A DNA stretch of 64,000 nucleotides from Dictyostelium discoideum (GCA_000004695.1 CM000155.2:1664001-1728000); one strand, 5' to 3'. Shown: positions 7,355 to 46,925, numbered from the stretch's first letter. Notes: a model not told the origin generated them from the letters alone. Numbers and translations: made by a program.

Positions 7355-9121
7355 ATGATCAGAAACTTAATCAAAACAAAAACAAAAATAAATGAAATTA
7401 AATTTAATAGGAATTTTTTATCAAGTTCAATATTAAAAATAAGAAATCATAATGATGATAGTAATAATATATTATTTTCAAATTCAAATACCATTGAAAT
7501 TCAAAATCTCCCATTAAATATAACAACAACTGATCTATTGAATCAATTTAAAAATTATAAAATATCACCACATGGAATTAAAACAAAATATAATACAGAT
7601 AAAGGATTTGCTTATATTACCTTTGAAAATAATCAAGATTTTATGAAAGCAATAGACAAGAAATTAATTTCATTCAATAATTTAAATTATTCAATTGAAC
7701 CAATTAAACAATCATTATCATCCTTATTATTATCATCATCATCAAATGAAGAAGAAGAAGTAACAACAACAACTAGTGAAACTATAAATACAAAAGTTGT
7801 TCAACACGAAAATGTAAATATAATATCATCATTAAATTCAAATCATTATAATCATTCAATATCGTATCCAAATCAGTCAGCTATTACTCAACAATTATGG
7901 TTTGCAAGAGTTAGTAAAGAAGTTAATCCAGCAATAACTGAAGCACCAAAGTTAACAACAAAAACACCAGAAGAGAGTAAAGTTGAGGTGATTTTACCAT
8001 TTAGTAGTGATTTACAATTACGTGAAAATTATTTATCCCCATATGGTAATTTAAGAATCGGTAGATTCTTGGAAGATTTAGATGCAATTGCTACAGCTGT
8101 AGCTTTTAAACATGGTGAGAATGAGAATGACGGTTATAAGAAAATGTTTGTAACTGTATCAGTTGATACAATTAAAATTCTTAGACCCTTAATTCCAGAT
8201 AGGGATATTAAAATGGAGGCTAAATTATCATGGGTTGGTAATAGTTCAATGGAGATCATGATTAGAGTTTTCTCAAAAGATAATGACAAAACTCAACAAT
8301 GGGATCCTGTCCTAGTCGCATTCTTTACAATGGTTGGTGTAGATCCAAAAACAATGAAACCAACACTTATCAACTCATTAAAAGTTGAAACTCCAACAGA
8401 GAGGAGACTATTCGCTGAAGGTGAACAACATAAATTACAACGTTTAAATTCAAATCAGCAATCACTTGAAAAATTACCACCAACTCCAACTGAATTACAA
8501 ACTATTCATAATCTATTCATGATTTCAAAACAACAACACCAATCATCAGATGTTGTTGATAGAAATTTCATTCCAATGAATTCAACAAGTTTAGAAACTG
8601 TTATTTTATGTCAACCTCAAGAAAAGAATATTAACGGTCAAATTTTTGGTGGTTATTTAATGAGAATGGCATTTGAAACTGCTTATACAACTTGTTTTAT
8701 GAAGTTTCCAGAATCATTACCAAGATTTAGAAGTATTAGTGGTTTGAAATTCCTTAAACCTGTTGAAATTGGTGATATTCTTAATATGGAATCAACCATT
8801 ACCTACTCAAAGCCAATGAACTCTGAAGATGATTGTGAAAATCAAACTTATTATACTCAAGTAGAAGTTTTAGCCTATGTCACCGACCCTTCCATTGGTG
8901 AAAAAAAACTTTCAAATGTTTTTAATTTCACTTTTTATTGTGCTCCTTCAAAATCTCAAAAAGAAAAATTACAACAACAAAATACAAACAAAAAATTAAA
9001 ACAAATTTTACCTCAAACTTATTCCGAAGCAATGCGTTATTTAACTGGAAAAAGAATTATTGATAGTTATATAGAATTTGATCAATCACCTTCTAAAATG
9101 GATATTTTTAAAAATGAATAA
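7355..9121 (+). CDS. Acyl-CoA thioesterase (ACOT9-like, tandem hotdog domains) with an N-terminal presequence-like region and an RRM-like segment
   Basis: ILCQPQEKNINGQIFGGYLMRMAFETAYTTC and RIGRFLEDLDAIATAVAF match the two hotdog folds of ACOT9/10. The N-terminal ...IEIQNLP...KGFAYITFENNQDFMKAI looks like RNP2/RNP1. Confidence 0.7.
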   Translation: MIRNLIKTKTKINEIKFNRNFLSSSILKIRNHNDDSNNILFSNSNTIEIQNLPLNITTTDLLNQFKNYKISPHGIKTKYNTDKGFAYITFENNQDFMKAIDKKLISFNNLNYSIEPIKQSLSSLLLSSSSNEEEEVTTTTSETINTKVVQHENVNIISSLNSNHYNHSISYPNQSAITQQLWFARVSKEVNPAITEAPKLTTKTPEESKVEVILPFSSDLQLRENYLSPYGNLRIGRFLEDLDAIATAVAFKHGENENDGYKKMFVTVSVDTIKILRPLIPDRDIKMEAKLSWVGNSSMEIMIRVFSKDNDKTQQWDPVLVAFFTMVGVDPKTMKPTLINSLKVETPTERRLFAEGEQHKLQRLNSNQQSLEKLPPTPTELQTIHNLFMISKQQHQSSDVVDRNFIPMNSTSLETVILCQPQEKNINGQIFGGYLMRMAFETAYTTCFMKFPESLPRFRSISGLKFLKPVEIGDILNMESTITYSKPMNSEDDCENQTYYTQVEVLAYVTDPSIGEKKLSNVFNFTFYCAPSKSQKEKLQQQNTNKKLKQILPQTYSEAMRYLTGKRIIDSYIEFDQSPSKMDIFKNE

Positions 9122-9773: not shown

Positions 9774-9905
9774 CTATTTGTTTTTGAAAAAAAAAAAATA
9801 TAAAAAAAGGAATAATAAAGAAATAATAAAGAAATAATAAAAGTTAATTTAAATTATTTTTTTTTTTTGTTTTTTTTTTTTATGAAAAAAAAAAAAAATA
9901 CATAC

Positions 9906-14243: not shown

Positions 14244-14929
14244 ATGAAATTATTATTTAAAATATCAACTTTACTTTTAATTATAATTCTTTGTAATTTT
14301 TTTAATTTAATATATGGTTTTCCTGGATCATATTCAGGATGTTCATCAATATCATATTCACAAAATGAGCTTGACACAATACCAGCTTCATTTGATGTTA
14401 GAACGAATTGGGGTGATTGTATGTCACCAGTAAGAGAACAACAGAGTTGTGGTAGTTGTTGGGCTCAAGTTACATCTGGAATTTTAGCAGATAGAATGTG
14501 TATTGAAAGTGATAAAAATATTAAAATGTTATTGTCACCACAATATTTAATGGATTGTGATGGAAGCTGTGTTTCCGATGGTGTAAGTGGTTGTAACAAT
14601 GGTTGTAAGGGTGGTTTCGTTGGTCTTGCTTTAACTCGTTTAATTAATGAAGGTATTGTTTCTGATGAGTGTCTTAGTTATCAAGCTTCAAAAGATTCTT
14701 CATGTCCAACAACTTGTGATGATGGTTCTCCAATTTCAAATACAACCATTTATAAAGCAACTAGTTGCAGAGCTTTTCCAACTGTTCAAGATGCTCAATA
14801 TGAAATTATGACAAATGGTCCTGTCATCGCAACCTTTATGTTATACAGTGATTTTAAACCACATAAATGGGATGTTTACATTAAATCTTCAAATACTCAA
14901 GTTGAAAGTCATGCAGTAAGAGTTGTTGG
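14244..14929 (+). CDS. Cathepsin B-like papain-family cysteine protease, exon 1 (signal peptide directly followed by the mature domain)
   Basis: IPASFDVRTNWGDC...QQSCGSCWA (catalytic Cys) and ESHAVRVVG (catalytic His). There are only about 25 residues between the signal peptide and the mature-domain start. A GTAAGT donor lies at 14930. Confidence 0.75.
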
Positions 14930-29829: not shown

Positions 29830-30637
29830 CTTTTAATAATTTTTTAAATATCCTTTTTTATTTTTAAATAATAATTTTTTAAATATCCTCTATAAAACAT
29901 TTACATATTAATTTTTTTGAAATAATAAAATTTTGGTGTTTAAAAAAAAAAAAAAGTAATCTAAAATAAACTTTTTTTTTTTTTGTTTATTTTTTTATTA
30001 ATTCTTTGAACATGGTAAAAAGTGCAAACTCTTTTGTCCAATCATCTTTGTTTTGAAGTTATTTTTAGATTTTTTTTTTATATGGAATTTGAAATTTTTT
30101 TTTTTTTTTATTTTTTTTTTTAAACCACCAAATCGAGATTTCTATGAAATTATAAATTACCAAACTGTAAATGTTCATATGAAATCCTTATTTCTAATTT
30201 GAAAATATAATAATAAGATATTACTTTCAAAAACATATTTAAAATACTAAAATTATTAATATATTTAATTTATTCTTTCTAATTTTCATTTCAATCAAGT
30301 CGGATTTTTATTTTTTTTTTTTACTTATTTTTTTTATTTATTTATTTTTTTTTTATATTCATTATTATTTTTTATTTATTTGTTTATTATTATTATTTGT
30401 TATTATTTTTAAAGTTTTTAATTTTTAAAATTATTTTATTAACTGAAAAAAAATTAAATTTTGGAGAATTTACTTAAAATAATGAATAATACATTTTTTT
30501 TCCAATTAAAATATTACAATCACTTAAAATAAAAATATTATTAAAAAACTTTTTTTTTTTTTTTTTTATTTTTTTATTTTTTTTTTATTTTTTTATTTTT
30601 TTTTTATTTTTTTTTTATTTTTTTTTTTTTTTAAAAT

Positions 30638-30675
<38 letters not shown>

Positions 30676-30800
30676 CTCAAAAAACCACAAACACCAATAC
30701 ATATAAAAAAAAAAAAATAAAAAAAAAAGGACTTAAACCTAAATATTATACACACAAATATATATATTTAAATATATATATATATATCCAATATATATAA

Positions 30801-31031
30801 ATGAAACGAGTAGGAGATTATATTTTAGATAAAAGAATAGGTTGGGGTGCATTTGCTCAAGTTTATAAAGGATTTAGTATTAAAACAAATGAACCCTTTG
30901 CCATAAAGGTTGTCGATGTTTGTAGATTAGCGGATAAGAACTCAAAATTAACAGAGAATTTAAATTATGAAATTAGAATTTTAAAAGAATTATCTCATAC
31001 AAATATAGTTAGATTATATGATGTTTTAAAT
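30801..31031 (+). CDS. atg1: Autophagy kinase Atg1 (ULK family Ser/Thr kinase), exon 1
   Basis: Kinase subdomains I-II: ILDKRIGWGAFAQVYKG...AIKVV. A GTAATA donor lies at 31032. Confidence 0.8.
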
Positions 31032-31156
31032 GTAATAGTATAAATAATAATTATAATAATACTATTAATAGTAGTAGCAGTGGTATTAGATAATTATTAT
31101 AATAAAATTACTAAAATTTTTTATTTTTTTTTTATTTTTTAAATTATTATCTATAG

Positions 31157-32831
<1,675 letters not shown>

Positions 32832-33028
32832 GTATGTATTTATTTAATTTAATTTAATTTAATTTAATCATTTAATTAATTATTTGTTTATTTATTTAAT
32901 TATTTATTTATTTAATTATTTATTTTTTTAATTATTTTTTTAATTTTTTTTTAATTATTTTTTTAATTATTTATTTAAAATTAAAATACTAATTTTTTTT
33001 TTTTTTATTATATTTTATTATATTTTAG

Positions 33029-33129
33029 ATTTAAATGCATTTGAAGTGAGAACTCAAATTTGTAAAAAAAATTATGAAAATAGCAAAAATACAGTTTTGA
33101 ATACCAATAGTATTCAAAATAATACATAA
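33029..33129 (+). CDS. atg1: Atg1 kinase, terminal exon 3
   Basis: TTTTAG acceptor. The phase-consistent junction gives ...IIKK-Y-LNAFEVRTQICKKNYEN...*. The three exons total 668 aa. Confidence 0.55.
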
Positions 33130-33850
33130 TCATAATAAAATAATTTAAAAACAACACAAATTATTATTATTATTATTATTTTTTTTTTTTTTATTATCTT
33201 TTAACACTTTTTTTTTTATTTTTGTTTTTTTAATAATATATCCCTTATTTAAATTCAATTTTAAAAATCATTGTAAATAAACAAACAAATTAATGTGTAA
33301 AAATAATTCTTCTTAAGTAAATATTTTAAAACCACCATCAAATTTAATTTTTTTTTTTTATAATTTTATATTCTAAAAATTATATTTTATATTTTTTCTA
33401 AATTAGTATAAAAATAATAAATAGCAGTAAATGAATTTCTACCATTCAATCATACACCAAATGGTTTTCTCCTATAATCGTAAACGTCAAATTATTTTGT
33501 ATGTAAGATTTGTTAATCCAATAATATTTTTCTATGCATATAAAATCATGAATATATGATAATAATAATTAAAAAAAAAAAAAAAAAAAAAATATCTTTG
33601 AAAAGTGTGGTTTAACTGTTTACTTTTATCAGTTTTTTTAACCTTTTTTTATTTTTATTTTAAAAAATTTATTAACAATATCTTCACAATCAAAGGATTG
33701 GGAAAAAGTATTAAATTCTCGATTTTTGGATATATAATTTAATTAAGATTTAATTTATTTAAAAAAAAAAATTAAAATTACATAAATAGAACCAAATTTT
33801 TTTTTTTTTCAATTAAAAAATAATAATAAAATTACTAAATATATATTATT

Positions 33851-33907
<57 letters not shown>

Positions 33908-33910
<3 letters not shown>

Positions 33911-35365
33911 TACTGTTTAAAAATTTATATATTATTTTATATTCTAATAATATCAATGGTATCAATATCACAATGTAATTCATTTTTAATAAAAAGTAAA
34001 CCAGATGTTATGATTGTTGATGAATCAATTCAAATCCATGAAATTGTTTATCAATTATTCGTCCAAAAAGTTGATCATTTTAATTTATTAGATGATAGAA
34101 CATTTTTTCAAAGATTTGTTGTAAATTCAAAATATTGGAATGGCACTGGTCCAGTTTTTTTCATTATTAGTGGGGAACAAAATATGGAGGCCAGTTCTGT
34201 AAATTCTTGTCAGTATACAATTTGGGCCAAACAATTAAATGCATTAATCGTGTCTTTAGAACATAGATATTATGGTGGTAGTTATGTAACTGAAGATTTA
34301 TCAACTGATAATCTAAAATATTTAACAACTCAACAAGCTTTGGCCGATTGTGTTGTATTTATCGATTGGTTTACCAAAGTATATTATCATGTACCATCAT
34401 CATCAAAAATCATTTCATTTGGAGGAAGTTATGCTGGTACTTTATCAGCTTATTTGGCAATGAAATATCCTTCAAAAATAAGTTTCTCTGTTGCTTCAAG
34501 TGCACCATTGAACCCAGTGGTTAATTTTTATCAATATATGGAAGTAATTCAAAAATCAATACTTTTATTAAATAATGGTGAAAAATGTTTAAATAATATT
34601 AAACTTGCAAATAATAAAATCATTGAAATGATTCATGACCCAATATTAACTTATAATATTACAAAATTATTTGGTCTTTGTTCAAATATTGATTTTGATA
34701 ATGATTTATCAACATTCATGTTTGAAATTGCAAATGTTTGGGGAACTGCTGCTCAATATGGTAATTTGGTACCTGGCTATATATCATTGGATTCATTATG
34801 TAATATTATGGTCGATGATTCAAAGGAACCATTGGATAACTATTTATACATTTGGTATGGTATGAAAAATTCTGATGAATGTAATGATGTTACCTATCAA
34901 ACAATGATTGCAAATTTTAAATATAGTCAAATCGACCATTTAAATACAAGAAATGAATTATTTAATATGACAAGACAATGGTTATTTCAATGTTGTACTG
35001 AATTTGGATTTTTCATTACAAGTGATTCATATGATCAACCTTTTACTAATTTCAATTTCAATTTTCAAAGACAAATTTGTATTGATGTATTTGGAAAAAA
35101 ACCTACACTTTCAACAAGTTGGACTTTGGTAGAGTATGGTGGTATTAGTCCAAACTATAACTCTGTTAGAAATGTTTTATTTGTTTCAAGTACTAATGAT
35201 CCTTGGTCATCTCTTTCAATTTCAAAATCAAATCAATATAAAATCGTTATAGTTGAAAATGGTACCCATTGTTCTGATATGATACCAATAAACGAAGTTT
35301 CTGTACCTGATGTTGCAAGGGCTCAAAATGAAATATTTAATTATATATTAGATGCTTTAAATTAA
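33908..35365 (+). CDS. Serine carboxypeptidase S28 family (lysosomal Pro-X carboxypeptidase-like), secreted
   Basis: Signal peptide, ISFGGSYAGTLSAY (the S28 GxSYxG nucleophile motif) and overall S28 architecture. Confidence 0.75.
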
Positions 35366-35684
35366 TTATAAAAAACAAATATTATTATTATATTTTATAT
35401 TTTTGTACAATAAATAATTTTAAAATAAATAAATAAAACAAAATTAAATAAATTAAATAAAAAAACAAATTATGAAATTGTAATTGATTAAATGGAAAAT
35501 GAAAGATATCCCATCATATTTGGAAAATAAAAACAATTATTAAAGTACATTGAAATTATTTTTTTTTTTTTTTTGATATAAATAAACTATTGTAGTATAC
35601 AATTAGTATGTTATTTTTATTTATTTATTTTAGGTTTTTTAGTTTTTGTGAATTTAAAATGGTATGTTATTTTAGATTAGGTAA

Positions 35685-36548
35685 TTAATAATTAATTGGT
35701 GGTGTAATTGTTGGAATTGGTTCATTTGTGTTTATGCTCCATTCTTTTTTAAATTTTTTGATGGTTTCGGACCATTGGGTTTCTTTTTGAGTTTTTGTGA
35801 GGTTGTTTTTAATTGAGTATTGGTTAAAGTTTGATAATGTTCTTGAATATTCCAATCTTATTAGCTTGTGCCATTTTGATTTTAATATATCATAATCTAG
35901 TGTTATGTTGTTTATTTGGTTGTTCCAATTGTCAATTGATTGAGTTATATTGATGTCAAATAATGATTTGCATAACCATATCCATATTTGGTGAATAACT
36001 AATGAGATTATGTTCCAATATGCATGTGTTCTGACTAGATCAAGATTTGTGTTTATATAATTCCAGTTGAACCTGTATTTTTTATATTGTGCGTTTTCTG
36101 CAAAATGAAAATTAATATTGATAGTTGGATCTGGTTTAAATGCTTTGTTGTTTGTTTGTGGTTTATCAATGAGTGTGTATAATTTTGTTGTTTGGTTTTT
36201 TGTTAGTGACCAGTTTTTGTTTCCATTGCAATTTTTATATATAAAATATTTTAATTTGTCGTGGTTTATGAAGTTGATTGTGTGCTGACAATTGAAAAAC
36301 AAATGACCATAGGGATCATTATTCATTTCATTGTTGCAAATGGGGCAAACTTTGTTGTGTAGATGATTAATCGGAAGACATCTAGCATGGAATCTTTGCT
36401 TGTATAACGGCCTTTTGGATCTTTTAATTTTTGAATTTTGACAAATAGTTGGTCGTATGTGTATTTCCATAATAGTTGTATTGATTGTTGGTGCGAAGTA
36501 AGAAGTAGATCTGAATATTTCTTGCCAACATAGTCTTTTGATTTGCAT
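35685..36548 (-). pseudogene. Retroelement ORF2 remnant, C-terminal part, in a different frame from the RT part
   Basis: HARCLPINHLHNKVCPICNNEMNNDPYGHLFFNC aligns with the zinc-knuckle region of the first element. It overlaps the upstream frame by about 225 nt. Confidence 0.65.
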
Positions 36549-37988
36549 TGGTGATTGTTGAGTATTGTCGAGTAGATTTCTTTGAGTGTTGGTGGTAGTG
36601 AAATATTATTTGTGGTTAATGTTTGAGAGGTTTGGTTTTTTGTTAATATTGGTTGTAGGGTTTGAACTTTATCTTTTAGATGTCCAATTTGAGTTGCATA
36701 GTTTTCCCATTCTTTTTTGATTTTTATCAGGTATGGAGAAGAGATTGATTTGTTGATGATTTGATCCATCCAACTTATCATGTATATTGAGTTATTTGCA
36801 GATTTATGCATTTGTAAAAATCTGTTGTATATCCATATCTTTTGAGCAACTTGTCGTAATTGTATATTCCACATACCCCAACCACCTTCTTTTAATGGTT
36901 TTAATGATATATCATAACACATCAAAGGTATTTTTGCACGTGAATGGATGGTTGATGTGTTGTTTTCAATGGAATTGGTATTGAGAGTTGGTGATTCAGA
37001 ATTTGAGGGAGAATTCATAAACCATGAGATTAATTTATTAATTTGAATTTCTTCATCTTTTGTAAATTCTTCAAGGTATGATAAATATGTTATTGGTGAT
37101 AGTGAGTAGGTGTTTATTATGGTTGTTTTTGTTTTTAATGTTGTGCCACTAGTTTTCCATAGTACTAATGATTTGATCAGTGTTTTCATTGTTTCTGGTA
37201 ATTTCCTATGTAAACCATTATGATTAAAGAAATAGCCAAGAACTCTTTCTGATTGATCTTTTTTGGTTATTGGTATTCTTTTTGATTGTGGAATGTTGTT
37301 TATTATGTGTTTATCAGTGATTTTGTGGGGGTTGATTTCTATTATTGCACTTTTGTTAAAATTTAATGATGATGATGTTGAAGAGCAGAAATTATCGAAA
37401 TGTTTGATTGATTGTTGTTGTTGTTGTTCGTAGTTGATGTTGTATGTTGTAGAGTCGTCTGCAAATTGGGTAAATTTGATTTTAATTTGTGGATTGGGTG
37501 AAATTGGTAATCCAATTATTGTATTGTCTGCATATATTGTTCTAGCTAATATTTCAATTACAATTACAAATAAAGTGGCTGAGATTGGGTCACCTTGTTT
37601 TACACCTCTTTTAATATCGAATTTTCTGGTCGTTTTACCATTAATTGAAATTTTTGCTTGTGAGTCAGATAATAGCTTGTGGATTAAATTTATTAATTTT
37701 ATTGGTATACCAATATTAATTAATGTTCTTTTAATACTATCGTGAGAGATAGAATCAAATGCTTTAAAGAAGTCAAATAGTGTGATGATACCAGGGAGGT
37801 TTTTAGATTTGAGGTAATTGATTAATTCATTGATGTTGATGATGTTGTCTATGATGAATCTGTGGGGTACGAAACCAGTTTGGTTGTTGTTGATAATGAA
37901 AGGAAGTATTCTCAGAAGACGTGCATTGAATACTTTTGAGAGGATCTTGTAATCAGTGTTTAGAAGTGTAATGGGACGACGATTTGAT
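36323..37988 (-). pseudogene. Retroelement ORF2 remnant, RT part. Open from the truncation point to a stop at 36323
   Basis: Continuous minus-strand frame ...LNNLSNRRPITLL...GDPISATLFVIVIE...FADDSTTY...GGWGMWNIQLRQVAQKIWIY...ATMK*. Confidence 0.7.
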
Positions 37989-38356
37989 AAATTATTTAAT
38001 TAAATTTTTTTTTTTATTTTTTATTTTTTATTTTTTTTTATTTTATTTTTTTATTTTAAAAAAAAACAAAAGATTCTTAATTTATTAAAATTAATCTTGA
38101 TTAGATTTTTTTTTTTTTTGGTTTTCGTTTTGGTTTACTGTGTGTTTGTTGAGGTTTTTGTATTAAAAGGTTGAGGTTTTTGTATTAAAAGGTTGAGGTG
38201 TATTTGTGTGTGTGTATGTGTGTTGATGTTTTGTTGACGTTTTTGCAGTTTTATGTAAAAATTTTACAATTGATTATTTCTTTTTATTGTTTTTTTATTT
38301 TTATTATTTATTATTTATTTATTATTTATTTTTATATAATTTGAAGTATATTATAT

Positions 38357-38674
38357 TTAATCCAACATTCCTTCTGGTAAAGCATCATCTGGATTATCGG
38401 TACCTTTTTCAGTTTCTTCTAAATCAGCTGATAAACATTTATAAGCTGGAGTAAGGAAAAGTGCTGCAAATGTAACTGTAACCCATGTCATATTTAAAAT
38501 TTTTCTAGTTGTGAAACAAACCAAATTTGCTGAACTAACAATAATATTTCCTAATGTTTTGTTGGTGCTTAATCTACTAAAAAATCCAACTGAAGGTTTT
38601 GGTGTTTCGTGAGATGTAGTTGCTGGTAATGATTTATTTTTTTTGGTTGGTTTCTTTGTTAATCCTTTTGCCAT
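38357..38674 (-). CDS. Hypothetical small protein (105 aa) with a Lys-rich N-terminus, one predicted TM helix and an acidic C-terminus
   Basis: Clean ATG-to-stop ORF in a GC-richer island between the two retroelement pieces. No family recognised. Confidence 0.35.
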   Translation of the reverse strand: MAKGLTKKPTKKNKSLPATTSHETPKPSVGFFSRLSTNKTLGNIIVSSANLVCFTTRKILNMTWVTVTFAALFLTPAYKCLSADLEETEKGTDNPDDALPEGMLD

Positions 38675-38750
38675 TTTTACTAATTATATATATATATATG
38701 TTGAGGTGATTTAAATATTATTTGTGTGTTTGTTCCTCCAAATTTTAAAA

Positions 38751-38956
38751 TTTTTTTTTTTTTTTTTTTTTTGATATAAATAAACTATTGTAGTATACAA
38801 TTAGTATGTTATTTTTATTTATTTATTTTAGGTTTTTTAGTTTTTGTGAATTTAAAATAGTATGTTATTTTAGATTAGGTAATTAATAATTAATTGGTGG
38901 TGTAATTGTTGGAATTGGTTCATTAGTGTTTATGCTCCATTCTTTTTTAAATTTTT

Positions 38957-38997
<41 letters not shown>

Positions 38998-39118
38998 TGG
39001 ATTAACAAGATTGATATATCTACCTATTTTTGATTGTTTCGGACCATTGGGTTTCTTTTTGAGTTTTTGTGAGGTTGTTTTTAATTGAGTATTGGTTAAA
39101 GTTTGATAGTGTTCTTGA

Positions 39119-39123
<5 letters not shown>
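38751..39123 (-). mobile_element. 3'-terminal fragment of the same TRE3-type element (about 350 bp with a 70-bp insertion), near-identical to 35573-35870
   Basis: Direct repeat of the 3' module: ttttgatataaataaactattgtagtatacaattagtatg...gagtattggttaaagtttgata(a/g)tgttcttgaatatt, preceded by T22. It is followed by further oligo(T) runs, each of which reads ataatc(A)n on the minus strand. Confidence 0.7.
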
Positions 39124-39154
<31 letters not shown>

Positions 39155-39185
39155 ATTATTTTTTTTTTTTACCTAAAAGCGGTGT

Positions 39186-39197
39186 AAAGAGTGGGGA
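39186..39197 (-). promoter_or_regulatory. Candidate ex-B box about 78 bp downstream of tRNA-Lys (minus-strand TCGGATCTCCCC)
   Basis: GC-rich island between oligo(T) runs that shares GGATC with the box near tRNA-Cys. Weak call. Confidence 0.25.
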
Positions 39198-39203
39198 GAT
39201 CCG

Positions 39204-39244
<41 letters not shown>

Positions 39245-39274
39245 ATTATAAACAAAAGATTTTAAAAAAAAATT

Positions 39275-39347
39275 CGCCCAAAGGGGGGCTCGAACCCCCG
39301 ACCACAAGGTTAAAAGCCTTGCGCTCTACCGACTGAGCTATCTGGGC
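39275..39347 (-). tRNA. tRNA-Lys (anticodon UUU), 73 nt
   Basis: Reverse complement GCCCAGATAGCTCAGTCGGTAGAGCGCAAGGCTTTTAACCTTGTGGTCGGGGGTTCGAGCCCCCCTTTGGGCG. Acceptor stem GCCCAGA/TTTGGGC, anticodon loop CTTTTAA and B box GGTTCGAGCCC. Confidence 0.85.
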
Positions 39348-40174
39348 ATTTTATTAGAATTATTTTCTTAATATAAGATTTTATAGAGTATATATATAAT
39401 ATAACTAGTATCTCAAAGCAATTAAAAATATCAAATTGTTGGTATTGAGTTATTAAAAAGAATCGTGTTATTTATTTCTTCGTTTTAATTTATCATTCTG
39501 TTATACAATAAGTTAATTTGTAAAGTAAATTTATTTAGGGTGTAATCAAATTTAAAAAATATAAAAAAATAAATGAAAAAAAAAAAAAAAAAAAGTGAAC
39601 TTTTGGGTAAAACGTACGTTAAACATTACAAGGGTTACAACAAAATGACCCTATATAGATTTTTATTTTTTTTTATTTTTTTTGAATTTTTTTTTAAATT
39701 TTTTTTTTGAATTTTTTTTTTTTAATTTTATTTTTAAATTAAATTTGATACCAAAGATAAACAAATGAGCTGTTTAAAAAAAAAAAATAAAAATAAAAAT
39801 AAAAAAAAAAATAAAAATAAAAAATAACTAATAAATTTCAAACAGAAATAATAACAATAATAATAATCTAGATTTATTATAAAAATTAAGAAATCCTATT
39901 AATAATAATAAATAAAATTTTTTTTTTATTTTTTTTTTTTTGTTTTGGTTGTCCCCCTTTTTAATTCATTGTTAATTTTTTATTTATTTATTTTCTATTT
40001 ATTTTTTATTTTTTTATTTTTTTTTTTTGTTCACTTAAATATATTTATATATATATAATAATTATTGAATAAATAAAAAAAAAAAGGCGGGTTGGGTGAA
40101 CAAAAAAAAAAAAAAAAAAATTATTTATTTAATTATTTATTTAATTTTAATTTAAAAAAAAAAAAAAAAAAAAA

Positions 40175-40241
40175 ATGAGACCATTACAACAATGGTCTTT
40201 GTATATAGTATCAATAATAATAATAGTAATTTTAAAAATTG
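40175..40241 (+). CDS. OSCA/TMEM63/CSC1-like (DUF221) calcium-permeable channel, exon 1 (signal peptide)
   Basis: MRPLQQWSLYIVSIIIIVILKI. A GTAAGT donor lies at 40242 (phase 1) and an AAATTTAG acceptor at 40318. Confidence 0.6.
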
Positions 40242-40318
40242 GTAAGTATGAAAAAAAAAAAAAAAAAAAAAAAAAATCGAAAAATTAATTTTTTATTTTT
40301 TTTTTTTTTTAAATTTAG

Positions 40319-42513
40319 AAAATTGTTTAAGTTCAACCAATTTTATGCCAACATTGGCAGTTGAAAGAAGGTCAACATTATTTATAGGTAATTTAACAAT
40401 AGAATCATCAGAAAGGGATTTAACTATAGGGTTATTACCAGGTACAGGTAATAATTTTGAATGGTTAGTTTTTAAAGATGGATTTAGTTTAATGGAAGGA
40501 AGGAGAGTTCAATCAGATGAATCGAATGATGCATTAAAATTTCAATGTGTTACAAGCTATGATAGTGGAATTTATTATTTCAAACAAAACGACCCAACAA
40601 ACACAGGTTACAATATAGAAACGGAAAGATTCATATTAAATGTCATTGGTAATGATACGGAAACATTGGTAATGATTAGAGAACCATCATCAATAGTTAT
40701 GTCTGGTACATCATTTTCAGTACAACCAGTGATTGGATTTGGAAGAGCGAAATTACCAACATGGAAAGGTGAATCCCGAGGAAGAATTGAACCAGTGATA
40801 TTGGAAAGTCCATCCAACGGGAAGAACATGCATTTTCTACTACAATTTAGAGGTGTCGATATAGATTTGGAGAGAAAAGAGACGACATTCAATACGCTCT
40901 CTCTAATTGGTGAGCCTGGAGTATATAGAATTGGATTCATTGATACCGATACATGTGAAATGTATAAATCAACAATGGAAATCACAGTTATTGGTACATT
41001 GAATTCGCTTTACTTTGAATGGTCATTGTCAGCATTCATAGTGTTATTAATAATCATAGTATCATTGGTAATCAATTTCATAGCAAAACATAAGGTGAAA
41101 TCAAAAGGATTCCTATCATTGAAGATGGCATTCCTCACACCAATGGAAAGTATATACAAATTCAAAGGTGAATCGATTAGATTCTACTTTAAATCACAAA
41201 GATTATTAGTATTCCAATGTTTATTCTTTACTTTTATCAGTTTGGTATTGTTCATACCAGTCACAGTGAAAGGTGATAACAAATTCCGAGACATGATACT
41301 ATTGTCACAAGCCAATTGGAATGCAAATTCACCATTTCTATTCTTTTATCAAGTGCAAGTGTTTTTATTATTCTGTTCATTAATAATTTGTTATACAAGA
41401 TTCAATGATGAAAGAATATATCTTTCACATGATAGTAATCATTTGGTAACATCAAGAAGTGTATTATTGACAGGCTTACCAAGATCATTGACCAATGTTC
41501 AAATGTTGAAAGATTTCCTTCAAACTGGTTATTCAAATGGTGTTTATTCAGTCTCAATCATTCTTATTAAAATATTTTCACAATCAGATAAAGATAACGA
41601 TTTAAATGGTAGATTGGAACATATCTATGTCGATCCAAATACTGATATAAATCAATTACCATCAGAATTGAAAGTTGAATCAACTGGTAAAGCATTTATA
41701 ACATTTTCATGTGTATCGGATGCTCATTTATTTACAAATCAATTCTCATCATACAAATGGACAAAATCATTAATTAAACGTATCACTCAACCAGTTATAC
41801 CTCAAGAGTATCGTACTGAATTGGGTACTGATAATTGGAGGGCCCACCCTGCACCAAGAGTATCCGATATACTTTGGACAAAGTTACATGACCCTGCAAA
41901 TTTTAGAAATGTTGGTTGGACAATACTACAAATGATTGGTATAACATTCTTCTTTTTGGTGATTGTATTCTTTGCCATCATCTTTTACGAAACTCAATTC
42001 TCAATCATTGACACAATTTCACCCATAGATTATGGTACCAAACAAGCCATGCTCGTTAGTTTAACCTCTTATTTAGCCTATTACTTTTGTCCAAGCATTA
42101 TTCTAATGGGTTTAAATCATTCATTACCCGGTATTATTAGATTCATTCTAATGCGATCAAATAATTATGTTAGAAGCTTTTCAAAGAGTAAAGTCATGTT
42201 AATCACCTTTATAGCTCAATCATTAATCATCGTTATTTTCCCATCTGCTTATTTCTTAATCAATGTTAATCCAGATTCCGATCATGTTTCAAATCAAAAT
42301 CTATTCTTAGTACCAATTAAATTCTTACGTAGAGGTGGTTCATTCTATATTCATTTCATTACTATATTCGCTATGTTAACTCCATTCTTAGAATTATCAA
42401 ATCTTTCCGATATAGTTTATAAAATTTTATTTCATAGAAATTTAAAAACTGAAGAAATCTTTAGTTTTGAACCTTTAAATTTAAAAAAACAATATTTAAA
42501 TTCATTATTATTA
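40319..42513 (+). CDS. OSCA/TMEM63-like channel, exon 2 (about 220-aa N-terminal ectodomain, TM helices, cytosolic RRM-like domain, pore-region TMs)
   Basis: AFITFSCVSDAHLFTNQF and WRAHPAPRVSDILWTKL match OSCA/CSC1 cytosolic-domain signatures. Multiple TM segments are present. Confidence 0.7.
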
Positions 42514-42607
42514 GTAAGTTATTATTTTTTAAAAAAAATTTAAATTAAAAAAAAAAAAAAAAAACATATTAATTTTAATTTTAATTTTATTTAAATAATA
42601 ATATTAG

Positions 42608-43494
42608 GTAATGATGATTGGTTGTTATGGACCAATTTTTCCATTATTATGGGTATTTGTATTATCATATTTAATTGTTAAATTTTATTTAGTTAAATAT
42701 GTTTGTATTGCTTCAAAGGCACCAATACCACCAAGTGATAAGTATTTTGCAGTTTCATTTCAACAATGTATTTGGTTCATTTTAACAGTGATATCAACAT
42801 TTCATTTCTATTATGTAGTTTCATTTGGCCGTGTTGATTTAATGTGTGTCTATATATTCTTGGTTGTCGTTGCATTTGGTAAATATTTCCCATCTTGTTC
42901 AAAGAGTTTATGTTATAGTTTCTTTGATGGTGCAGTTTTACCATGTTTTTCAAAAGATAATGGTAAAAATAAAAAAAGTAATTCAATTGATCCAAATGAT
43001 TCAGATTATTATGATGATGAAAGAGATCAAGATTATTATCAAGATTCTGATGATTCAGATTATGATGATGATGATGATGATCAATATGAAGATAATCATA
43101 GAAATAATGATGGTTATTATCAATATGATGATGATGATGATGATGAAGAAGAAGATGATGATGATGAAGAAGAATATGAAGATGAAGATGAATACGAAGA
43201 TGATCAAGTAGAATTAAGAAGAAGAATGTATGGTAATAGATATAATGATAATGAATATACAGAACAAGATTCATCAGGCGAAGAATATGATGTAAATTCA
43301 CCACCAGAATATTATTATGATGAAGATCGTGGTGAATTTGTTCAACAATTCCCAAGTTCTATTCATCGTCGTAATAATAATAATATGAAAAAACAAAGAG
43401 CAAATTATAGTAATAATAATAACAATAGCAATAACAATAATAATCAAAAACAGCAACAACAGCAACAACAGCAACAACAGCAACAACAGCGACA

Positions 43495-43525
<31 letters not shown>

Positions 43526-43541
43526 AAAAAACAAAAACATC

Positions 43542-43611
<70 letters not shown>

Positions 43612-44149
43612 TTACAATGTTAATTTAACAGAATCATTTGGATCAAGGCCACCACAACCTATTTCTAATGGTGTTTCAAGTGCAGTTTCTCAGCCAGCAT
43701 TACCATTATCAGCAATTCACTCACCATTACCACCACCACCACAACCAGCAACAACAACTACTACAGATTCAAATACAGATTCTAACAGTGGATTACATGA
43801 TGATTTAATTAATGAATATCTTAAAGAACCAAATCAAGATGATGTTAAATTAAATATTCATCATAAATCGAAATTAAAACAAAAGATTTTAAAGATTAAA
43901 CAAAGTTATACTCAAGATCAAGGTTTTGGATTTATGTCTAGATTCTTTGGTCGTTATAAGTTACCAACTCCAGAGTCAATGACTGTTATAACTTATCTAT
44001 CTCCTTATTTTGGTTTGGATATTTCTCAGTGTGAAAATGTTAAAGATATAGAAGAAGAAGAAGATCAAGATATTAACGATGATGATTATGAATATGATGA
44101 TGAGGATAATTTAGGTGGAGGTGGTGATTATGAAGACTATTCTTCTTAA
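42608..44149 (+). CDS. OSCA/TMEM63-like channel, exon 3 (last TM helices plus a roughly 430-aa acidic/poly-Gln low-complexity tail)
   Basis: The frame continues across a 94-bp intron (GTAAGT donor, TATTAG acceptor). YGPIFPLLWVFVLSYLIV... is followed by D/E/Y-rich and Q-rich tracts. Confidence 0.65.
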
Positions 44150-44600
44150 AAATAATAATAATAATAATAATAAATAATAATAAATAATAATAAATAATAA
44201 ATAATAATAAATAATAATAAATAATAAATAATAAATAATAAATAATTATAGAATAATTTAGATCTAAAAAAAATGGTTCAAAGAATAAATTAAATCTTGT
44301 TTTTATTTTTTTTTTTATTTTTTTTAAAAACTCCACACAACTCAAAAAAAAAAAATGAGTTTCCCCACACAACTCTTTTTTTTTTTTTTTTTGTTGATAG
44401 TCTATTTTTTATTTTTTTTTAAACAGACTATTTTTTTTTTATTTTTTTTGTTAATAGTCTATTTTTTATTTTTTTATTTTTTAATTTTTATTTTTATTTT
44501 TTTTTTTTTTTTTAATCTTTTAGTCTATTTTTTTTTTTTATTTTTTTTTTTTAATCTTTTAGAACTTACACCACAACCAAACATTGTTGATTTTAAGAAA

Positions 44601-44625
44601 ATGTCTCTTCAGCTCGATATTGATC
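44601..44625 (+). CDS. Poly-Q protein, putative exon 1 (MSLQLDID)
   Basis: ATG followed 25 nt later by a GTAAGT donor. Phase 1 is consistent with the acceptor at 44718-19. Confidence 0.4.
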
Positions 44626-44719
44626 GTAAGTGTATAAAAATTAAAAAAATAAAAATAAAAAATTAAAAAAATAAAAAATGAAAATTAAAAAATTAAAATA
44701 ATAAAAATAAATAAAATAG

Positions 44720-46848
<2,129 letters not shown>

Positions 46849-46860
46849 TATGTTGGGGGG

Positions 46861-46925
<65 letters not shown>

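Follow-up and report, generated by a model that had tools for sequence, protein, structure and literature searches.

Behind a tRNA-Lys(UUU) gene in a 64-kb stretch of the Dictyostelium discoideum genome (GCA_000004695.1, CM000155.2:1664001-1728000; the whole stretch is hereafter called the window), a 3.7-kb block of retroelement pieces of the TRE3 type was found to contain ~760 nt of host DNA with a small gene. The whole is best explained by at least four target-primed insertions on the 3' flank of the tRNA gene, with the host gene carried in by a TRE3 RNA, an explanation that is favoured here with reasonable, though not high, confidence. Capture of the gene through RNA was probably involved, with 3' transduction as its likeliest form, and it is the best reading because the host segment starts at the poly(A) tail of a TRE3 fragment. 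The wider claim, that the TRE3 machinery copied a conserved host gene together with its leader and 3' region into the safe haven of a tRNA gene, in the laboratory lineage and not in other isolates of the discoideum clade, was judged to be evenly balanced.

Read on the minus strand from the tRNA gene, the block consists of the tRNA trailer, a run of 35 adenines (A35), stub X with an A12 tail, TAATC followed by A32, a short TRE3 fragment that is split by stub Y with its A32 tail and that ends in A22, the ~760 nt of unique DNA, and a 2.4-kb TRE3 copy with an A16 tail; all the inserts are oriented like the tRNA-Lys(UUU) gene. Pile-ups of TRE3 at tRNA genes are textbook knowledge for D. discoideum, and the TREs are used as a model of how mobile DNA can persist in a haploid genome that is densely packed with genes, in their case through the targeting of tRNA genes. 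The present pile-up merely illustrates this behaviour, and the capture of a host gene alone is possibly new: in a limited literature search, no report of 3' transduction or host-gene shuffling by Dictyostelium TREs was found. If the wider claim is true, the tRNA-targeted retroelements of Dictyostelium can shuffle host genes via 3' transduction or template switching. Confirmation of the capture would provide an example of retroelement-driven gene movement in an amoeba, which can be tested by direct comparison since it is polymorphic among sequenced isolates.

The locus with and without the block

The window was compared with nine fetched loci (L001-L009; 246 kb of fetched DNA), of which L001 and L006 belong to one D. 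discoideum assembly, L003 to D. citrinum and L004 to D. firmibasis, while L005 ('cf. discoideum'), L007 and L008 represent the orthologous site in three further assemblies of the discoideum clade. Genes for tRNA were called with ARAGORN and Rfam, repeats and copies with BLAST and domains with Pfam, and flank homology was judged by local alignments with shuffle controls (300 shuffles). The tRNA-Lys(UUU) gene was confirmed on the minus strand, where the initial annotation had placed it, at 39274-39348 (ARAGORN; Rfam RF00005, 72.6 bits, E = 1.4e-14). Its internal B box, GGGTTCGAGCC, begins at 39297, and the sequence of the tRNA gene is identical across the orthologous loci L005-L008.

The initial annotation had proposed a comparison of this locus with other D. 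discoideum strains, and the discoideum-clade genomes that were compared fell into two groups. Over 11.5 kb that take in the whole pile, L006 agreed with the window at 99.9% identity and differed in two homopolymer lengths only; it probably represents the laboratory lineage, as the strains of bioRxiv 10.1101/2025.08.01.668227 include AX2. L005, L007 and L008 carry the same flanking genes and the same tRNA-Lys(UUU), and in all three the 3.7-kb block is absent, no TRE3, stub or small gene having been found between the tRNA gene and the S28 peptidase gene. The AX4/AX2 lineage bears a translocation between chromosomes 3 and 6 (bioRxiv 10.1101/2025.08.01.668227); a translocation breakpoint at the present site was considered and rejected, since in the other isolates the DNA on either side of the block runs collinearly along single contigs. 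In their intergenic DNA, L005, L007, L008 and the window differ from one another by indels of hundreds of bp, and a further ~680 bp of L008 is lacking in the window. A reconstructed 'empty' window allele was also aligned with L005, L007 and L008, both globally and with MAFFT, and the results were ambiguous, the DNA here being rich in AT and in indels. Within the ~680-bp stretch, the empty alleles contain an open reading frame (ORF) for a cysteine-rich product of 61 aa with a signal-peptide-like start, MLKILIANILLMTGLLSV..., at 8718-8903 (plus strand) in L007 and at ~9070-9260 in L008.

An external B box was found in three of the three empty alleles (L005 11864, L007 9033 and L008 9434), exactly 53 bp past the internal box. 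A B-box scan of 35300-39400 in the window returned the internal box and no second one, so the mapping of 3' junctions against the external B box, as had been suggested, has no reference point in this allele. Homology of the tRNA flank to the empty alleles stops ~5 nt past the tRNA gene, and the native tRNA-proximal flank, including the external B box, appears to have been lost from the filled allele. Such an allele suggests that repeated targeting can erode its own target signal. The tRNA gene is now followed by a 30-nt trailer (39244-39273, minus strand), which consists of a T9 terminator for RNA polymerase III (Pol III) and then AAAATCTTTTGTTTATAATC, and whose final 6 nt (39244-39249, ATAATC) form the upstream copy of a presumed duplication around stub X. 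Neither the trailer nor the 5' flank of the large TRE3 copy gave significant matches to the empty alleles, and the collinear 8-mers seen by eye (AATCTTTT, TTTAATTA and CAATGTAC) are for this reason suggestive at most.

TRE3 copies and the stubs of other elements

Long A/T homopolymers are ordinary in this genome (G+C = 23% in the window, where 66 A/T runs reach 16 nt or more and 10 reach 30 nt or more), and the oligo(T) runs of the plus strand therefore prove nothing by themselves. What lies above chance is that four A/T runs directly follow demonstrated 3' ends of retroelements. The initial annotation had proposed serial target-primed insertions of TRE3 elements, which integrate downstream of tRNA genes, and this was supported by the pieces described below: they stem from several separate insertions of non-long-terminal-repeat (non-LTR) elements that target the downstream side of tRNA genes, all in tRNA orientation.

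The 2.4-kb 5'-truncated copy that had been reported was confirmed at 35559-37989 on the minus strand (element 35575-37989; A16 tail 35559-35574, T16 on the plus strand), with a reverse transcriptase (RT) domain (RVT_1, E = 1.4e-29). This copy covers the RT and the C-terminal CCHC region only, with a CX2CX10HX4C motif in the C-terminal frame. It is inactive: relative to an intact ORF2, a 1-nt deletion near 36400 shifts the frame, 3 nt are inserted at 37426-37428, and 47 positions are substituted over the 2.4 kb. The closest proteins were RT models of D. discoideum AX4 (86-97% identity), and the copy is 98% identical to L001 7352-9778. The full-length relative in L001 measures ~5.3 kb and encodes ORF1 (402 aa) overlapping ORF2 (1275 aa), the latter with the domains Exo_endo_phos (residues 8-231) and RVT_1 (502-732). 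It sits behind another tRNA-Lys(UUU) gene in the same orientation, accompanied by a second copy in tandem and by an X stub. The insertion points in L001 lie 37 and 49 nt behind the tRNA gene, and three nested duplications (CTATATTTTTAG, TTTTAGTATTACCAAAA and GTATTACCAAAA) were read there, so three successive insertions took place 37-49 nt behind that tRNA gene. Serial hits on one tRNA gene, which the initial annotation had assumed, are thus documented in L001 as well as for TREs (PMC5006619), whose tandems arise by sequential targeting of one tRNA gene (PMC5006619, supplementary Table S2 note). L001 was also considered as the orthologous locus and rejected, because the 3' flanks agree over ~15 nt only, the wider flanks differ and another tRNA-Lys locus is involved. 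The tandem full-length copies of L001 (4438-4480 and 9827-9850) have different extra 5' nucleotides ahead of a common AAAAAAACCGAAAAAAC; the extension of copy 1 (GTTCAAATCCCAG...) together with the preceding G forms a perfect B-box-like GGTTCAAATCC, which may be native flank or may have come from an external B box through 5' transduction.

Membership of the TRE3 family was found to be well supported, because the domains, the two-ORF layout and the siting downstream of tRNA genes match the published behaviour of TRE3. The element is a poly(A)-ended non-LTR retroelement (A16 and A22) with two copies in the window that are 5'-truncated at different points, and terminal repeats were not found in either of these two copies. 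It has two ORFs, and ORF2 holds an apurinic/apyrimidinic endonuclease (APE), an RT and a zinc finger in that order (read in the L001 relative, the zinc finger in the window copy), and it lies downstream of tRNA genes and is oriented like them (37 and 49 nt in L001, 151 nt for the short fragment of the window). Published TRE3 integrations occur 40-150 bp downstream of tRNA genes, whose orientation they share (PMC5911963), and TREs have been placed in the L1 clade (PMC5911963, Table 1). The subfamily is probably TRE3-A, a letter taken from abundance only (75-97% identity to seven gene models of AX4, and two clusters with 21 and 11 members) and unconfirmed. The element of L002 (45% identical) was rejected as a guide, since its 3' end differs and no tRNA gene is nearby. 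The TRE3-like elements of L002 (13300-14400) and L009, with RT identities of 45% and 58%, respectively, lie in transposon-rich clusters with no same-strand tRNA gene adjoining, and are interrupted by a DDE transposase element and LTR retrotransposons.

The large copy was said to have inserted at the same site as the other pieces, but today a conserved host gene separates it from the tRNA gene. Its 3' flank, CAATGTACTTTAATAATTGTTTTTATTTT, aligned to the empty alleles ~129-205 nt behind the tRNA gene (z = 4.3; 0 of 300 shuffles), which would place its 3' junction, the point at which a target-primed insertion begins, ~125-170 nt behind the tRNA gene in the empty alleles and ~95 nt past the external B box, that is, at the canonical TRE3 distance. 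Its present distance of 1.3 kb from the tRNA gene is secondary. A candidate target-site duplication, AAATAATTT, was identified at 35553-35561 (minus strand) with its partner at 37989-37997; the informative part, TAATTT, has a chance probability of ~0.03. A hidden Pol III gene near the large copy was looked for and rejected, Rfam having found only the tRNA gene in 30000-45000 and the scan no B box.

The short TRE3 fragment, which had been reported as one piece at 38751-39123, is present and matches the large copy at 98-99%, but it is not contiguous: a foreign insert of 66 nt (38961-39026), which had gone unnoticed, splits these last ~277 nt of the element. The 5' part lies at 39027-39123 (truncation point 39121-39123) and showed 97.9% identity to 35755-35851 (BLAST E = 7e-43), and the 3' part lies at 38773-38960, ends in ...TTTATTTATATC and is followed by the A22 tail at 38751-38772 (99% identity to 35559-35762; BLAST match over 38754-38960, E = 6e-101); both are on the minus strand. 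Two diagnostic variants of the fragment are common to L001 copy 1 and lacking in the large copy. The fragment and the large copy each agree with a different L001 copy at the diagnostic variants and are therefore derived from independent sources, not from local duplication.

The 66-nt insert is stub Y, which consists of 34 nt, TAGGTAGATATATCAATCTTGTTAATCCAATATT, at 38993-39026 and an A32 tail at 38961-38992 (minus strand). Y is an unambiguous nested insertion, since it interrupts an otherwise continuous TRE3 match and has duplicated element sequence on both sides, namely 8 bp, ATCAAAAA, with the upstream copy at 39027-39034 and the downstream copy at 38953-38960. Over its last 27 nt and the poly(A), Y equals the terminus of the L009 element at 14760-14786 + A28. 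This element encodes P0016, an RT 58% identical to the TRE3 RT, and Y is thus the 3' end of a second RT-encoding element, probably a second lineage of the TRE3 family. A stub homologous to Y was also found in D. citrinum behind tRNA-Lys(CUU), in tRNA orientation (L003 8915-8945).

Stub X is a G+C-containing sequence of 38 nt, TTTCTCGGATCTCCCCACTCTTTACACCGCTTTTAGGT, at 39171-39208 with an A12 tail at 39159-39170 (minus strand). Its last 15 nt and poly(A) recur in L001 at 9797-9826, between the two tandem TRE3 copies and with a 12-nt duplication around them; this recurrence marks X as the mobile 3' terminus of a poly(A) retroelement, as opposed to host DNA. In D. firmibasis, similar-looking stubs of ~36 nt, AAACACCGCCGATAGACCTTGCGTCTAATCATAGGT, which end in ...TAGGT(A)n, were found behind tRNA-Lys(CUU) (L004 8684-8772 and 8362-8396, minus strand), and one of them has a 13-nt duplication, CTCTCGGAAATCC, that begins inside the external B box or directly behind it. 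Extremely short aborted insertions behind tRNA genes are thus real, and the stubs, which measure 15-38 nt and derive from two or more further element lineages, show how often integration aborts. The proposal that insertions at this site were aborted after a few dozen nucleotides holds for X (38 nt) and Y (27-34 nt), but not for the ATAATC(A)n units, which are probably not TRE3 stubs.

The host segment and its route to the tRNA gene

The ~750 bp of unique DNA with a small ORF that had been noted downstream of the short fragment are present, but they are not native to the site. The host segment (37990-38750, ~760 nt, minus strand) comprises a leader of 75 nt, the small ORF and a 3' region of ~350 nt that ends A-rich, and no further copy was found within the window by BLAST. 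The intact ORF (38357-38674, minus strand) encodes a protein of 105 aa that is basic at its N-terminus, contains a single hydrophobic segment and ends in an acidic tail; it gave no Pfam match even at E = 10. Orthologues with 75-80% identity were found in D. citrinum, D. firmibasis and D. dimigraforme only. No matching D. discoideum protein was found in a database of 5.8 billion proteins, and the ORF is uncalled in L006 too, so that an unannotated gene is the probable explanation. In the 3' region of the small gene, at 38148-38191, a 22-bp unit, GTTGAGGTTTTTGTATTAAAAG, was observed as two perfect tandem copies, whereas D. citrinum has it once.

At the nucleotide level, the host segment showed 78% identity to D. 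citrinum L003 9934-10678. An alignment of three species was robust from 38740 to 38046 and included a conserved TTTTTTTTTAAAATAA block at 38069-38046, which is followed by a fading A-rich tract up to the large copy, so that the exact 3' boundary of the segment lies between 37990 and ~38045. In D. citrinum and D. firmibasis the small gene lies between an opposite-strand tRNA-Lys(CUU) gene, 0.9-1.1 kb upstream (L003 9054-9126 and L004 8801-8873, both on the minus strand), and genes for zf-C2H2_jaz, NOC4 and ATG16. The tRNA-Lys(UUU) gene of the window is upstream of the small gene on the same strand and is not orthologous to the tRNA-Lys(CUU) of the sister species, and no ORF of the D. citrinum locus besides the small gene matched the 64-kb window. 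Absence from the orthologous site in L005, L007 and L008, together with the presence at another locus in the sister species, indicates that the host segment is foreign to this locus. In D. citrinum, the region upstream of the small gene also contains a tRNA-like sequence, which was rejected for want of Rfam support. The 3' flank of the large copy was compared with the D. citrinum locus as a possible continuation of it, and the score was no better than that of shuffles.

Downstream of the short TRE3 fragment, host homology starts within ~10 nt of the A22 tail, and it stops at the 5' end of the large copy or close to it. The order of TRE3 end, A22 and then TTTTAAAATTTGGAGG... places foreign unique DNA directly after the poly(A) of an element, as is expected of a 3' transduction. 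The following history could account for the whole. A TRE3 copy, probably TRE3-A, would first have inserted at the canonical distance, truncated to 2.4 kb and with AAATAATTT as its candidate duplication. Later, and nearer to the tRNA gene, a second TRE3 RNA of another sub-lineage would have delivered the 3' fragment of ~277 nt, A22 and the ~760 nt of host sequence. The preferred mechanism for this step is 3' transduction, in which a TRE3 copy located 75 nt upstream of the small gene would have been transcribed with read-through into the gene, reverse transcription being primed on the A-rich 3' end of the small gene or on its poly(A) tail and stopping 277 nt into TRE3. The Y lineage may then have left its stub of 27-34 nt with A32 and an 8-bp duplication within the short fragment, and element X would have left its stub of 38 nt with A12, flanked by ATAATC(A)n. 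The native tRNA-proximal flank and the external B box would have been lost along the way.

Several points weigh against this history. The filled allele lacks ~100 nt of the native flank, among them the external B box, and simple insertion does not account for this loss. The duplications attributed to the large copy (~0.03) and to X (~0.06) are short and AT-rich, which leaves the boundaries and the order of the events insecure. The transduced unit has neither a clean terminal poly(A) nor a verifiable duplication of its own; it ends in an A-rich tract with A11, which resembles the genomic tract of the sister species at that place, and both of its ends lie in A-runs. The small gene has no intron, so that intron loss is unusable as a mark of RNA origin. 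The source TRE3 upstream of the small gene is postulated only, the nearest tRNA gene in D. citrinum faces the other way, and the subfamily letters A-D are unverified.

An alternative, considered unlikely, is that the host segment was transferred at the DNA level, by segmental duplication, gene conversion or repair capture, and that the TRE3 pieces inserted independently on either side of it, the large copy off-target. The fluidity of intergenic DNA between the isolates, with its indels of hundreds of bp, would suit such a transfer, and no diagnostic mark of RNA, such as intron loss or a clean poly(A), is at hand to oppose it. The alternative demands, however, that the upstream end of the segment coincide within ~10 nt with a TRE3 poly(A) and its downstream end with the 5' end of a TRE3. 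It also needs a TRE3 insertion ~790 bp from the tRNA gene, whereas reported TRE3s are always ~100 bp downstream (PMC5006619), and on both outer sides of the block the DNA follows one and the same contig collinearly in the other isolates, so that no translocation breakpoint lies here.

Even less probable is a single composite event that made the whole of 35559-39123, either by template switching from a TRE3 RNA to the mRNA of the small gene and on to the poly(A) of another TRE3 RNA, or by 5' transduction, with a chimeric transcript that started at the promoter of the small gene and ended in a truncated TRE3 downstream. TRE3 sequence does bound the host segment on both sides, ATAAT(C/T) stands at both outer ends (39154-39159 and 35553-35558), the junction of A22 and the host segment resembles an end-to-end template jump, and one step would put the whole unit at the canonical distance. 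Against this, the junction between the host segment and the large copy has no poly(A), which a jump onto the 3' end of an mRNA should leave, and AAATAATTT flanks the large copy alone (although as a match it has only p ~ 0.03). More rare steps would be needed than for two ordinary events, and the truncated copy would be unable to supply its own proteins.

The history of separate insertions with 3' transduction was also compared with known systems. The TRE3 arrays (TRE3-A, formerly Tdd-3, and TRE3-B, C and D) are similar in consisting of poly(A)-ended non-LTR elements with two ORFs and an ORF2 of APE, RT and zinc finger; the present array differs in that there is no external B box, the oldest copy is 1.3 kb from the tRNA gene, the array encloses a host gene, and of its four inserts two measure only 27-38 nt; its subfamily names are unverified. 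Transduction of 3' sequence by mammalian L1 was reportedly described by Moran et al. in 1999 and by Goodier et al. and Pickeral et al. in 2000. The likeness to it lies in an element 3' end with its own poly(A), followed by foreign unique DNA, an A-rich end and 5' truncation inside the element, whereas here the source element is postulated only and the terminal poly(A) and duplication are unverifiable. Chimeric retrocopies produced by template switching are said to have been found for L1 by Buzdin et al. in 2002, and end-to-end jumps for R2 by Bibillo and Eickbush in the same year. In these chimeras, too, different RNAs are joined head to tail and point the same way, the poly(A) of one meeting what looks like the 5' end of the following RNA; here, however, the expected poly(A) is missing from one of the two junctions, which can be explained just as well by two separate events. 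The LTR element Skipper-2 (formerly DGLT-P) likewise integrates downstream of tRNA genes in Dictyostelium (PMC5006619). It shares the target zone, but it has LTRs and an integrase, neither of which is present here, and every insert here ends in poly(A).

The ATAATC units and neighbouring features

Between the tRNA gene and the short fragment, the initial annotation had described oligo(T) runs separated by gattat/gattataaac stubs. The runs are present as T32 (39122-39153) and T35 (39209-39243), with gatta(t) after each, but the 38-nt sequence at 39171-39208 and the A12 that lie between them, which belong to stub X, had been omitted. On the minus strand, the trailer with its ATAATC is followed by A35, the stub and its tail, and then the second ATAATC (39154-39159, of which the first A is part of the X tail) and A32. 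The A35 run is either an expanded native A-run that was duplicated with ATAATC or a poly(A)-only product, and its length is either unstable or miscalled by the assembler, since the run is 4 nt shorter in the near-identical L006. ATAATC(A)n was found nowhere outside this locus in the window and the nine loci. To judge from their arrangement, the two copies are probably a target-site duplication of X and not TRE3 stubs, a reading limited by the ~0.06 chance of a match over the 5 informative nt of the junction in AT-rich DNA and by the long A/T runs, which are common here and unstable or miscalled.

The reading of the two units as ultra-short TRE3 3' stubs of 6-10 nt from aborted insertions, which the initial annotation had preferred, is very unlikely: GTTTATAATC resembles the TRE3 terminus GTTTATTTATATC, and very short poly(A) stubs do exist behind tRNA genes (15 nt in L001; ~36 nt in D. 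firmibasis), but six of the six observed 3' ends of the TRE3-type element (near-identical L006 included) read ...TTTATTTATATC(A)n, that is, TATATC and not ATAATC, one duplication is likelier than the same deviation arising twice independently, the position of the copies on either side of X and its tail is exactly that of a target-site duplication, and a 6-nt AT-rich match carries almost no information.

On the far side of the block, the S28 peptidase gene DDB_G0292476 lies on the opposite strand (33908-35365), and its end is 193 nt beyond the A16 tail of the large copy. Its identity makes chromosome 6 of AX4 the very probable location of the window, and AX4 gene models were also the top protein matches of other neighbouring genes. 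A runs of 53 nt (33856-33908) and 63 nt (46861-46923) were also observed in the window, the former stopping at the ATG of an S28 ORF of 485 aa, for which the annotations of the isolates start 16 codons later (469 aa). At the extreme edge of the window, a tRNA-Cys(GCA) gene was found at 88-161 on the minus strand, with its downstream side lying off the window.

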